Positions 9,866 to 23,717 of a DNA stretch of 33,213 nt are shown here, one piece after another. The stretch's first letter is position 1, and each line of letters begins with the position of its first letter. The notes beneath the pieces are model-generated. The model had not been told where the DNA came from. It was given only the letters and a program-made list of their open reading frames with translations, and made no database searches. Location: positions 1 to 33,213 of the IMG/VR virus record IMGVR_UViG_3300028048_000100; one strand, written 5' to 3'. A program made the translations under genes and the position numbers. Source of the DNA: a virus (lineage: Duplodnaviria > Heunggongvirae > Uroviricota > Caudoviricetes).

Positions 9866-9883
9866 AATATATAGTTTTGTTAT

Positions 9884-9926
9884 ATATCTATATACAAAGA
9901 AAGAGGAAATCTTTAGTGATTTCCTC
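9884..9926 (-). promoter_or_regulatory. Promoter motif copy 2 fused to an intrinsic terminator hairpin
   Basis: Hairpin GAGGAAATC-ACTAAA-GATTTCCTC then TTTCTTTG TATATAGATAT; CTAAA-N17-TATATAGAT. Confidence 0.8.
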
Positions 9927-10953: not shown

Positions 10954-12648
10954 TTACTGTTGGTAACGTGCCTGTGACTCTGAATCAACCTTACCCTTGT
11001 CGACATCTTCTGCCTCCTTATGTAAGAAGCGAACTGTCTTGAGCTTGAATGCCTCGGCAATAGGATCGTCGTAGATACGAACTACGATACCCTCACGTGG
11101 AAGCTTGTTTACACAGAGTGGCTCATCCATCTCCATGCAGAAGTTCTTGTCGTTCTTCAAGCGCTGCAATAGTGCGGTCTGCCATGCTTTGTAGATTTTG
11201 CTATCACGAGAAACCTTCTCATTCAAGAAGTCGTTGATAGTCTTCTTCTCTACACTCATCCAGTCGTACATGTATGCGCGCTCTGCACGGATGATCGTAT
11301 TGAACTTCTCACGTGCTGCCTTATCCTCTTCAGACTCACCAGGAACTTCTGGGCGCTCTTCGATGAGCTTCAAGAAGTCGTCGCTGGTTGGAAGATCTGG
11401 ATAGAGACCTGCCACTTGACCGTCGTACAATACATCGAGAGGACGTAGGCGCTCTGCGATCTTATCCTTGCCGGCCTTAGTGAGTTCCACCTTGAGGTCA
11501 CTGACGAATTGAGCAATAGCATCTGGGTTGTACTCTGTGGTGCTATCCTCAAGCTTCTCAGAAACACGATAGATCATCAATTGGTTCTTTCCGACCGGGT
11601 TGCCGTAGTCAAACACCTTTCCACCGAGTGACATGATACCTGTTGAAGAGTCTTCGAAGTAGCCGACGATCTCACCATATACAGTGATGTTATGTGGGAT
11701 AAATCCAGCCAGACGCTCTTTCCAACGCTTGATCTCACGCTGCTCTGCACCGTCTACGTTCTCGTTGACCTTACCATCATACAACTCGCCGTTGATAATG
11801 ACGTTACGAGATGAACATACGTCATCATAAACAGTCACTGTCTTCTGGAGGCACGCAGGGAACCAGTTGAAGAAACGATTATAGAGACCACCCCACTTAG
11901 GCTTCTTAACCAGGATGTTACCGATGATTGAGCTAGTACCATGCAACTTAACTGAGATATTGATCCAAGTCCAAGGACGGAGCACACTCATATTGGTCTG
12001 GAGCTGTTGAGTGTCGTAGTGGAATGAGAACTGACCAGGTACGATACGAGAGAACTTTTTAAGTCTCTTGTTGCGCTTGTTACCACGAACTTGTGGTTGT
12101 GCACTAACCTCAGGCATGTAAGGTTGTACGAACAACTCACCATCCACAGTGTCGAAACGCTCACCGACGAGCTCTTCCCAGTTGATACTTGCACACTTTT
12201 TGTTGAATACAGTCATCATCTCGGGGTGAATCAGGTAACCCATAGACATTACACCACGAAGCTTCTTCATACGAACGCGGCAGTTCTTACCGAAGTAGCC
12301 TGAGTTCTGCGTTGCGAACTGTTGAACCTCTGCCTCTGTAGCACCAGATTGCTGTAGAAGCTTGATCTGGCTAGCTAACCAGTCGCGGTTAGCGTTGTAC
12401 TTGGTCTCTTGGAACTCGTTGTTGACAGAAAGGAACTGCGCATTCAATTGGCATTCGTTACAGATGTAAATCATGACGTTGCCTTCATGAACGGTGTCCT
12501 TGCGGACAACGATCTCACGGCCTTCTACAACAGTCACCCCGAGAAAGTCTGAGTTCTCCATAGGAGTCACTTGGTCCAAACGTACTACAGTTGCGCAGTA
12601 CTCATTAGACATGTCTTTTGATTGTGAAAGGATTGGATTCTTTTCCAT
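10954..12648 (-). CDS. ATP-dependent RNA ligase (Rnl2-like, DRB0094-type with N-terminal OB-like domain)
   Basis: Motif I SVKLHGTS, III YGEIVG, IV EGIVVR, V FKLK; N-terminal CATVVRL...EGREIVV...EGNVMIYI module; ATG 12648 preceded by an A-rich tract. Confidence 0.85.
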   Translation of the reverse strand: MEKNPILSQSKDMSNEYCATVVRLDQVTPMENSDFLGVTVVEGREIVVRKDTVHEGNVMIYICNECQLNAQFLSVNNEFQETKYNANRDWLASQIKLLQQSGATEAEVQQFATQNSGYFGKNCRVRMKKLRGVMSMGYLIHPEMMTVFNKKCASINWEELVGERFDTVDGELFVQPYMPEVSAQPQVRGNKRNKRLKKFSRIVPGQFSFHYDTQQLQTNMSVLRPWTWINISVKLHGTSSIIGNILVKKPKWGGLYNRFFNWFPACLQKTVTVYDDVCSSRNVIINGELYDGKVNENVDGAEQREIKRWKERLAGFIPHNITVYGEIVGYFEDSSTGIMSLGGKVFDYGNPVGKNQLMIYRVSEKLEDSTTEYNPDAIAQFVSDLKVELTKAGKDKIAERLRPLDVLYDGQVAGLYPDLPTSDDFLKLIEERPEVPGESEEDKAAREKFNTIIRAERAYMYDWMSVEKKTINDFLNEKVSRDSKIYKAWQTALLQRLKNDKNFCMEMDEPLCVNKLPREGIVVRIYDDPIAEAFKLKTVRFLHKEAEDVDKGKVDSESQARYQQ

Positions 12649-12689
12649 TGTTGTTTGTTTTTTGAAATCTAATAAGTTAGGTTCCACCA

Positions 12690-12723
12690 CCCATCCATTT
12701 AAAGTCCGCGATGGGAGGACTCT
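12690..12723 (-). other. Predicted H-type RNA pseudoknot upstream of the RNA ligase
   Basis: AGAGUCC-U-CCCAUC-GC-GGACUUU-AAAUG-GAUGGG: stem 1 AGAGUCC/GGACUUU, stem 2 CCCAUC/GAUGGG. Confidence 0.55.
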
Positions 12724-12726
12724 TCT

Positions 12727-12876
12727 TTAGGCCTTATCAAGCTCTTCATCCTTCTCCTTCAGGATATTGATTAGAGCTTTGAGACTTTCGCGTGTACTAA
12801 ATGTGAGACTGGTCACCATACCGCGATAATCGAAGCCGGGTCTAAACGGCGGTTCTTTGAGTTTTATTTCAATCAT
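12727..12876 (-). CDS. Small protein (49 aa), not in ORF track; in frame with the RNA ligase
   Basis: MIEIKLKEPPFRPGFDYRGMVTSLTFSTRESLKALINILKEKDEELDKA; ATGA overlap with the upstream gene. Confidence 0.65.
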   Translation of the reverse strand: MIEIKLKEPPFRPGFDYRGMVTSLTFSTRESLKALINILKEKDEELDKA

Positions 12877-18011: not shown

Positions 18012-18115
18012 ACTCTTTCAGGGTATTCTTCGTGGATGTACTCAATCACATACTGCCATACATCGACAGTATAAATGTAGTTTCCTACACGAACATTTAA
18101 TCTGTAACTATTCAT
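18008..18115 (-). CDS. Small hypothetical protein (35 aa)
   Basis: MNSYRLNVRVGNYIYTVDVWQYVIEYIHEEYPERV; track ORF 18008..18265 shortened to avoid a 137-nt overlap. Confidence 0.5.
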   Translation of the reverse strand: MNSYRLNVRVGNYIYTVDVWQYVIEYIHEEYPERV

Positions 18116-21104: not shown

Positions 21105-21707
21105 TTATTTTGTTTTTGGTATATAACAATATATGGCTATCTCAGATGTAGGGATGCACATGCCGGTTCGATCTTGGAAGAATACAACTCCATCTTTCAT
21201 TACGAGTTGGCCACTGAGCTTCTGTTCTGCCTTGGTTTGAGTCGCCTTAGTTCTGATTCGCATCGGTTTGTACAAGAGTATACCAGGTAGCTTAGAACTC
21301 AATGTATTACTACTTTCTTTAGGCCAAGGTTTGAACGTGTTATAGGCCTTGCAGCCCTCTACGCATGTTATGCACTTATTTTTGCCTGTTGACAAATCTT
21401 CAATCAACCAATAATAGTCTTCATCTGTCACTTGTACACCTTTAAATATACCAATCTCACCATGGGTAGTTTTACAAATATCTCCCACGTGATACTTAGC
21501 CATCTTGAGGATATCCGGGCGTCTTTTGAACATCTTTTTAACCTCCCAGCGGTTAAGGTCAGCCGGCTTGAGGTTGTACTCGGTGATATACCAGATATTG
21601 GAATCATCCTTAGCCCCACAGAGTTGTCTGTAGTAGTTCCAGTGGCGGCACACATCCAAGTACTCATCCAGCGTTTCAACTTCTATGTAATATGGTTTGA
21701 TTTTCAT
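21105..21707 (-). CDS. Hypothetical protein with internal KOW/SH3-like module
   Basis: KYHVGDICKTTHGEIGIFKG; TAATG overlap with the upstream stop. Confidence 0.75.
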   Translation of the reverse strand: MKIKPYYIEVETLDEYLDVCRHWNYYRQLCGAKDDSNIWYITEYNLKPADLNRWEVKKMFKRRPDILKMAKYHVGDICKTTHGEIGIFKGVQVTDEDYYWLIEDLSTGKNKCITCVEGCKAYNTFKPWPKESSNTLSSKLPGILLYKPMRIRTKATQTKAEQKLSGQLVMKDGVVFFQDRTGMCIPTSEIAIYCYIPKTK

Positions 21708-23467: not shown

Positions 23468-23717
23468 ATTCTTCTACGATTTCTTCATTGTATTTGCAAC
23501 CGTCTCTATCATTTTTAATTGCATGTTCAGCCTCTGTTAGAGTTTCATAGCAACCGTCTGTCCAACCGTCTATGTTATTGAAATTATACCACCACAAAAA
23601 TCCTAAAAATCGTTTTTGAGCAATATATTCAGTACGTGTAATTGGATTGATAGATTTACCATCTGAATTTATCTGCCAATATGTCTGTTCTCGCTTTAGA
23701 ATCCTATATCTTTTCAT
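23460..23717 (-). CDS. Hypothetical protein (KRFLGFLWWY-type phage domain)
   Basis: Start ATG 23717; ends in TAG overlapping the TK start. Confidence 0.7.
   Translation of the reverse strand: MKRYRILKREQTYWQINSDGKSINPITRTEYIAQKRFLGFLWWYNFNNIDGWTDGCYETLTEAEHAIKNDRDGCKYNEEIVEEYE

Follow-up and report, generated by a model that had tools for sequence, protein, structure and literature searches.

The 33,213-nucleotide (nt) stretch of a Caudoviricetes genome analyzed here (IMG/VR record IMGVR_UViG_3300028048_000100, positions 1 to 33,213, hereafter the window) carries a gene for a 564-amino-acid (aa) RNA ligase (10954..12648, minus strand, ATG at 12648-12646), preceded by a 49-aa open reading frame (ORF; 12727..12876, minus strand), and a compact H-type pseudoknot can be drawn between the two. 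The knot starts right behind the stop codon of the ORF, in whose frame the ligase also lies, and the question raised by this locus is whether it serves readthrough of the stop codon, regulates the ligase, or is a product of chance. Comparison with the corresponding loci of other phages indicates, with high confidence, that the element is a conserved, ligase-specific leader RNA and a cis-acting part of the ligase message. All coordinates are given in window numbering, and all parts of the element are read on the minus strand, that is, the ligase strand.

The pseudoknot and its relatives in ligase leaders

The element begins 3 nt after the TAA stop codon of the 49-aa ORF (12727..12729, context GCC TAA, then A). 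Stem 1 is formed by AGAGUCC (12717..12723; the 6-mer AGAGUC is common to relatives of the L008 type) and GGACUUU (12701..12707, within the loop of stem 2), and has 7 base pairs (bp) including one G.U; stem 2 is formed by CCCAUC (12710..12715) and GAUGGG (12690..12695) and has 6 bp. Loop 1 is a single U (12716), compared with 3-4 nt (UUU, AUU) in the relatives, loop 2 is GC (12708..12709, directly before the 3' arm of stem 1), and loop 3 is AAAUG (12696..12700), A-rich as in the relatives. The whole knot comprises 34 nt (12723-12690) and lies at -75 to -43 relative to the ligase AUG; as isolated hairpins, the two stems are predicted at -7.1 and -7.8 kcal/mol. Directly 3' of stem 2 there is UGGUGG (12684..12689, at -42 to -37, the core being at -40), whose U-G-G-Y part is the near-invariant core of the family described below. 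The remaining A-rich leader between the motif and the AUG (12649..12683) is predicted to be unstructured (minimum free energy, MFE, -0.3 kcal/mol) and contains no Shine-Dalgarno sequence. The sequence facts on which the initial annotation of this locus was built (the 49-aa ORF, TAA at 12729-12727, the interleaved stems, the 3-nt spacer and the peptide given there) were all found to be correct.

From the window sequence alone, the knot is not beyond chance; it is the relatives that make it so. Both strands of the window were scanned for equal or better perfect pseudoknots (no stem shorter than 6 bp, a total of 13 bp or more, not more than one G.U, the same loop ranges), yielding 4 sites versus a mean of 0.9 (range 0-2) in nine dinucleotide shuffles. 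The other three pseudoknot-compatible patterns of similar quality are at 18035-18073 (minus strand), 9867-9899 (plus strand) and 21175-21209 (plus strand). The nested fold of the 101-nt region, calculated by a folding program that is blind to pseudoknots, is no better than those of shuffled sequences (z = -0.13). What carries the case for the element beyond chance is the position of the hairpin with TGGTGG and the covariation of both stems in the relatives.

These relatives were collected by a profile scan with a 12-sequence ligase alignment, which yielded 20 loci from IMG/VR and 69 loci from metagenomes, mostly rumen. The counts below refer to 71 distinct ligase loci of rumen and gut phages, Prevotella Lak megaphages among them. 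Those compared at the leader level have ligase identities of up to 58%; the loci of the closest ligase matches, P0002-P0007 (51-63% identity), are not among them. For each locus, the 150 nt upstream of the ligase start were compared with those of the others. Many lineages show the same layout, namely a hairpin of 5-8 bp with a lineage-specific stem sequence, followed directly by U-GGUGG, then by a purine-rich stretch and an A-rich run to the AUG, with core variants UGGCGG, UGGUGU, UGGUAA and UGGUGA. Since CCCAUC(14)GAUGGG-U-GGUGG of the window occupies the same place, stem 2 of the initial annotation corresponds to this conserved hairpin.

The strict form of the unit, a hairpin of at least 6 bp (not more than one G.U, loop of 4-14 nt) with TGGTGG in the zone from -95 to -25 relative to the AUG, is present in 13 of the 71 distinct loci, while 0.0005-0.001 are expected per 71-nt zone, given a background of 0.7-1.5 per 100 kb. 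With the core relaxed to TGG[TC], the hairpin is found in the same zone in 25 of the 71 distinct loci, versus 0.01 expected per locus. The only other strict matches in the whole 97-kb record (G000) are at 23593 and 7041. The 540-kb Prevotella Lak megaphages carry the motif upstream of their ligase homologue as well: Lak-B5 (L093:286-338, MK250024.1) has the full knot AAUAGG-UUU-GAUUAUU-UU-CCUAUU-AAAA-AAUAAUC-U-GGUGA, and the motif is also observed in Lak-C1 (L092:277-320).

Where the loop has 7-14 nt, most lineages also form stem 1, by pairing of the first loop nucleotides with a run of 3-7 nt just ahead of the hairpin. The pairings are AGAGUCC/GGACUUU in the window, AGUC/GACU in L008, AAGUC/GACUU in L009, UAAGUC/GACUUA in L067, UGUC/GACA in L033, AUCGUC/GACGAU in L035, ACAG/CUGU in L015, ACGG/CCGU in L052, AAAG/CUUU in L025, AAG/CUU in L069, GAG/CUC in L073, and AAUAGG/CCUAUU in Lak-B5. 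Across 12 lineages, stem 1 complementarity has a mean of 4.7 bp within a lineage, a value reached in none of 20,000 permutations in which loops were swapped across lineages; it is 1.9-2.2 bp between lineages and falls to 1.3 bp with shuffled upstream sequence.

Alignment across related phages had been proposed with the initial annotation as a check on the knot, and compensatory changes were indeed found in both stems. Two gap-free MAFFT alignments were analyzed, of 7 sequences (set 1) and 12 sequences (set 2), both small and partly related by descent. In set 1, 92% of the cells are paired, and changes on both sides are seen in 6 of the 13 pairs (3/6 in stem 1, 3/7 in stem 2). In set 2, the corresponding values are 93% and 7 of 11 pairs (2/4 in stem 1, 5/7 in stem 2); for instance, pair 9-24 of stem 1 is AU in five sequences, CG in three and GC in three. 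The covariation score was reached by none of 500 shuffles in either set, and when the 3' partners are slid by 1-3 columns, pairing falls to 30-55% in both (30-50% in set 1).

The specificity of the motif was assessed with two covariance models, R1 built from sets 1 and 2 together and R2 from the seven set 1 sequences only; R1 models only stem 2, as knots are not representable, and the E-values are rough. In each of five whole phage records (73-197 kb) R1 has exactly one significant match, always before the ligase gene, with all other matches at E above 0.09. Outside its training set, R1 finds the elements of Lak-B5 (E = 5.5e-6) and Lak-C1 (6.8e-5), and also that of L002 (0.0045).

As regards the window copy, R2 ranks 12727-12677 (minus strand) at the top of the whole window with 19.1 bits and an E-value of 0.037 for the 66 kb searched; restricted to the 141 nt upstream of the ligase, this is about 1e-4. 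The window shares AGAGUC with L008 and L009, GACU(U/A)UAAA with L008, L009 and L022, and the last 14 nt of the leader with L022. These shared segments, the top rank with R2 and the chance of about 0.001 of having a hairpin with TGGTGG at exactly this place speak against the window copy being a chance look-alike outside the family. Such an origin might be suggested by the roughly one pseudoknot-compatible pattern expected by chance per window and by the low score with R1 (see below), but we regard it as very improbable. Judging by its sequence, the window copy is, with high confidence, a divergent member of the ligase-leader motif.

Several observations weigh against a uniform, universally retained knot. 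The window copy scores only 2.9 bits with R1, and it diverges from the others in having 1 nt instead of 3-4 nt in loop 1, a 6-bp stem 2 that lacks the usual UU/AA closing pairs, and a loop of 14 nt. Its 5-nt loop 3 is short for a 7-bp stem 1, so that the outer A-U, G.U and A-U pairs might not all form. The element is missing from about half of the ligase loci that have a spacer, among them that of the closest relative compared (L075, 58% ligase identity); it is thus gained and lost among phages. Moreover, the knot is replaced by a hairpin with a GAAA tetraloop in L002, L004, L007, L044, L046 and L089, and by a plain hairpin in L013, L042 and L058. As these two subgroups lack stem 1, it is not essential to the family; by comparison of the leaders, the constant unit is a stable helix with 3' UGGY, the knot being the commonest way to build this helix.

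The element could also act at the level of DNA, as a cassette-border or recombination hairpin, a Chi-like site or a promoter. The neighbours upstream of the ligase do differ between phages, and the patchy presence of the element resembles that of mobile cassettes; the junction of hairpin and core is GCTGGTGG, the Chi octamer of E. coli, in L002, L004, L007, L025, L046 and L089 (group A, L025, L046 and L089); and RAGTTTG in set 2 resembles the -7 box of Bacteroidota. However, the identity with Chi probably arises by coincidence where a stem ending in GC meets UGGUGG, the window having GGTGGTGG, and neither downstream of the ligase nor elsewhere in the genomes is there a second copy. The orientation and the distance to the AUG are fixed, and interleaved covariation with asymmetric loops is an RNA signature, needless for a DNA hairpin. 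G.U pairs also favour one strand: five independent ones are seen on the ligase strand (stem 1 of the window, L044, L026, group D and L014), versus two A.C mismatches that would wobble on the other strand (L011/L040 and L065). The geometry carries more weight than these pairs. In pseudoknots, loop 1 crosses the deep groove of stem 2, and loop 3 crosses the shallow groove of stem 1. Judged by this stereochemistry, a loop 1 of 1-4 nt over a stem 2 of 6-7 bp together with a loop 3 of 3-7 nt over a stem 1 of 3-7 bp is feasible on the ligase strand only, while on the complement a loop of 1-3 nt would need to span the shallow groove of 6-7 bp. Taken together, a role at the DNA level has a very low probability.

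Some further features of the ligase leaders are worth recording. About half of them contain a second conserved block, GGAGAYTYGAAC, 0-16 nt after TGGTGR (seen at L004:2944-2975 and L045:914-935, and in L022, L042, L051, L058, L015, L069, L092 and L093); the window does not have it. On the opposite strand, this block and the core read GTTCRAG...CCACCA, resembling the T-loop plus the CCA end of a tRNA. An antisense tRNA fragment, or a complement to a tRNA 3' end of the primer-binding-site type, was considered and set aside, since the spacing is 18-34 nt compared with 24 nt in tRNA, the window lacks the block, and ARAGORN reports no tRNA. In the leader of the window, UUAUUAGAUUUCAAAAAACAA (12655-12675) shows a weak likeness to the loop half of the set 1 pseudoknot (12.4 bits with R2, E = 1) and may be a decayed second copy or noise. 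Finally, the leaders of group E (L069, L073 and relatives) have an extra long-range helix, formed by GGGAAAUU ... AAUUCCC and GGGGAAAAAAUU ... AAUUUUUUUCC, which ends just before the AUG and seemingly covaries; in this lineage alone, it might mask the start region.

Reading frame of the upstream ORF and readthrough

The initial annotation proposed, as one of two functions, that programmed readthrough of the UAA yields an N-terminally extended ligase of 640 aa. In the window, the ORF and the ligase are indeed in one frame, with a pseudoknot behind the stop codon, and the 26 stop-free in-frame codons between the TAA and the ligase ATG (AGA AGA GTC ... ACA ACA) were confirmed. Such continuity has, however, a chance of about 5-10% at any one gene junction.

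Frames were compared for the 27 element-bearing relatives with an assignable upstream ORF. The position of the stop codon of this ORF ranges from 66 nt within the element to 134 nt ahead of stem 2. Relative to the ligase, all three frames (0, 1 and 2) occur and none is preferred, and in nearly all relatives there are one to eight in-frame stops between the ORF and the ligase. Frame 0 without a stop is seen only in the window and in L042, but the upstream ORF scored in L042 overlaps with the element and seems to be spurious. The first 20 relatives gave the same picture, with neither frame, nor stop position, nor open frame conserved. The expectation that frame and spacing would be conserved is therefore contradicted (stop-element distances of -66 to +134 nt), and the caveat already attached to the initial annotation, that the continuity could be accidental, is borne out: the continuity is real, but not conserved in the relatives.

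The ligase itself points the same way. Twelve homologues with 47-100% identity share its N-terminus (M-x3-5-SQSKDMS.EYCATVV) from the ATG onward, the starts falling within about 5 residues of each other, and among the best 120 ligase matches (range searched 310-987 aa) none exceeds 597 aa, the longer ones having internal insertions. The ATG is preceded by an A-rich region free of Shine-Dalgarno sequences, as are other genes of the phage, and so has an initiation region of its own. A GUG at 12688-12690, inside the GGUGG core, is an in-frame alternative start of the ligase (578-aa ORF); the relatives give no support to it.

The stop codon and spacer are likewise unfavourable. UAA is recognised by both release factors, and the signal of murine leukaemia virus (MuLV) combines a UAG stop with a spacer of about 8 nt. 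The window has UAA followed by A and a spacer of 3 nt, which is neither a leaky stop (UAG or UGA) nor a spacer of about 8 nt; with the stop codon in the A site, such a spacer would put stem 1 inside the ribosome. In known readthrough signals, a leaky stop codon has a pseudoknot several nt downstream of it (PMC3835772). The likeness to the MuLV gag-pol signal comprises a stop codon, an H-type pseudoknot and an open frame beyond, the last in the window genome only. The differences include not only UAA instead of UAG and 3 nt instead of about 8 nt, but also the bacterial system, the unconserved frame and stop position, and a downstream protein with its own start. Synthesis of the extended ligase thus has next to no probability, and, on the sequences compared, readthrough is refuted as far as comparison can refute it, the shared frame being accidental. 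The case calls for caution, as a single sequence in which an open frame and a pseudoknot follow a stop codon mimicked recoding, and it was the relatives that separated the real knot from the accidental frame.

Possible functions of the leader element

In most lineages, the 36-58 nt that separate the motif from the AUG are predicted to be essentially unstructured (MFE near 0). In the whole 97-kb record, a Shine-Dalgarno-like 4-mer is present upstream of 7 of the 105 long ORFs, compared with a background of 12%, and the leaders are 40-50% A. The scarcity of Shine-Dalgarno sites and the A-rich leaders point to a host of the Bacteroidota type, which fits the ligase relatives in Prevotella Lak megaphages.

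The gene 32 operator of T4 and RB69 has a 5' pseudoknot of about 28 nt, at which the OB-fold protein gp32 begins to bind before it spreads over the more than 40 nt of unstructured, A/U-rich leader that reach to the start (PMC535899). Because the layout of the ligase leaders matches that of gene 32 (a knot, then an unstructured leader), a translational operator of this type, bound by a protein, is favoured here, with a probability that we put close to an even chance; the ligase itself, owing to its N-terminal OB domain, would be the first candidate binder. The initial annotation had named a ligase operator as its other proposal. This part agrees with what was found, a conserved, covarying, ligase-specific, single-copy knot on the ligase strand with an unstructured leader, while the tie to ribosome stalling proposed with it found no support. 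Weighing on the other side, the leader of the window has none of the UUAAA/UAAA repeats known from the gene 32 operator, although several relatives have AUUAAAA or UUUAAA runs.

According to this operator model, a protein, most plausibly the ligase via its N-terminal OB domain, would recognise the stacked helix together with the 3' single-stranded UGGY(GG), and would then occlude the unstructured A-rich leader needed for initiation by ribosomes that do not use Shine-Dalgarno sites. The compact structure may also shield the message from 5'-end decay. As the window element lies inside the operon, 3 nt behind a stop codon, ribosomes finishing the 49-aa ORF would have to melt stem 1.

A plainer possibility is a passive 5'-end structure or processing signal, i.e. 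a cap against 5'-end-dependent decay or a mark for RNase cleavage, with no regulator involved. The fact that a plain stable hairpin can stand in for the knot is compatible with it, as is the promoter-like sequence that may be recognised just upstream in several lineages (similar to TATAAT in group A, and TATATTTA in sets D and E), since this would put the structure at the extreme 5' end of the transcript. However, neither the near-invariant single-stranded UGGY(GG) nor the restriction to the ligase gene within genomes of 73-197 kb would be explained, and the window element is internal to an operon, not at a mapped promoter. We therefore consider a purely passive role rather unlikely. With respect to promoters of the phage itself, CTAAAGA (12724-12730), the first box of its repeated promoter motif, overlaps the TAA of the 49-aa ORF; a phage promoter at the element was rejected, since only this first box is present and no second box, TTTGTATATAGATAT, follows at the spacing required.

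T-box leaders use UGGN against the NCCA end of tRNA. The never-varying U-G-G-Y directly beside a helix, upstream of an RNA-repair ligase gene, together with a compact knot with an A-rich loop 3, as in small riboswitches, raises the possibility of a leader sensing a ligand or tRNA: either a riboswitch built on a small pseudoknot, or a minimal T-box-like sensor whose UGGY pairs with tRNA NCCA, tuning the ligase to the tRNA pool. Against this, the searches of Rfam 15 with the window region and 13 relatives gave only noise and no family match, including the T-box and preQ1 families; the loops vary in sequence, and a GAAA hairpin is all that one subgroup has, leaving no conserved pocket. Complementarity to the tRNA end beyond UGGY is not universal either (UGGUAA and UGGUAU in group D). 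Neither of the hairpins is followed by a U run (AAAUG or UGGUGG stands there instead), which does not correspond to an intrinsic terminator. Neither the arms of stem 2 nor UGGUGG pair with the initiation region better within a locus than between loci, so that no expression platform is seen; on this ground a switch acting by pairing with the start region was rejected. A sensing leader thus seems improbable, more so than a passive structure.

A still less probable, indeed quite doubtful, variant is that UGGY, stacked on stem 2, docks the NCCA 3' end of tRNA, coupling the ligase to uncharged or damaged tRNA, or else that the stacked helix of the knot, interrupted in one strand, mimics the nicked duplex sealed by ligases of this class, and the ligase represses its own message by such substrate mimicry. 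If tRNA docking were true, the leader would sense, for example, an attack of a host anticodon nuclease or an attack on the acceptor end. ARAGORN finds no tRNA in the window or beside the ligase in 20 loci, and there is no match to RF00005.

Two other candidates were tried and rejected. A leader peptide or upstream ORF (MDGWW, with tandem UGG, in the window, and in some relatives VAERLE, starting at a GUG) is conserved neither in start, nor in frame, nor in length, according to a reading by hand. A Shine-Dalgarno role for GGUGG is not tenable, as the phage lacks such sites.

The ligase and comparison with known systems

The 564-aa protein matches phrog_968 (RNA ligase) at 1.2e-35. Its OB domain (PF21189) scores 26 bits, with a cut-off of 27, and the ligase-family profile has a weak match (E = 0.09) to the OB domain of Naegleria NgrRnl (PDB 5COT); TIGR02306 gives 20.7 bits, with a cut-off of 151. 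Invariant among the homologues in the 12-sequence alignment are K234-x-H236-G237, E519-G520 and F534-K535-L536-K537 (motifs KxHG, EGIV.R and FKLK). In its apparent arrangement of an N-terminal OB domain, then a nucleotidyltransferase domain with KxHG, EGIV.R and FKLK (PF09414 + PF21189), the protein resembles the ATP-dependent ligases of the Rnl5 type (Deinococcus DraRnl, Naegleria NgrRnl), but the relationship is very distant, and the phage protein is about 220 aa longer through insertions. When cultured and published phages were searched at the protein level, members of the ligase family turned up in Prevotella Lak megaphages, in a human faecal phage and in mycobacteriophages; a nucleotide search of cultured phages gave no match, and a protein scan of IMG/VR for close relatives gave none. 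As for the 49-aa ORF, its ATG overlaps the stop codon of a preceding 281-aa ORF (ATGA), and it has no family match in Pfam, PHROGs or NCBIfam.

The leader motif appears to be an undescribed RNA motif, supported by covariation and without a match in Rfam 15, linked to a single class of genes, that of a distant Rnl5-like RNA ligase, and reaching from uncultured rumen and gut phages to the 540-kb Prevotella Lak megaphages. The motif could be one of the 8,495 unnamed candidate RNAs predicted from IMG/VR in a publication that makes no mention of ligase (PMC10690425). It offers a small handle on the dosing of RNA-repair enzymes during infection and on translation control in hosts that do not use Shine-Dalgarno sites.

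The element lacks the features by which readthrough signals, T-box leaders, small pseudoknot riboswitches, terminators and tRNAs are defined. With T-box leaders (RF00230) it shares UGGY beside a helix able to stack on the acceptor end of tRNA, and a downstream gene related to RNA or tRNA. Unlike them, it has no Stem I, specifier, terminator or antiterminator, its length is about 45 nt compared with 200-300 nt, and there is no RF00230 match at E-values up to 5-10, so that this is a resemblance only. The preQ1-I riboswitch (RF00522) is similar in size, H-type topology and the A-rich loop 3, but there is no Rfam match to it, no loop nucleotides are conserved, one subgroup lacks the knot, and the start region is not sequestered.

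The likeness to the gene 32 operator (PMC535899, PMC3014915) is broader. In both cases there is a compact H-type knot with a very short loop 1, located 5' in the leader of a phage message about 40-75 nt before the AUG; the knot is followed by 35-58 nt of RNA predicted to be unstructured, running into the initiation region; and the gene product has an OB-fold nucleic-acid-binding domain. Still, there is no sequence relationship between the two, the product is an RNA ligase and not an Ssb, the UGGY(GG) tail has no counterpart in gene 32, and the phage host probably does not use Shine-Dalgarno sites. By analogy, the element is best described as a putative structured leader or operator of a phage gene, with an architecture like that of gene 32, no shared sequence, and a different gene downstream.

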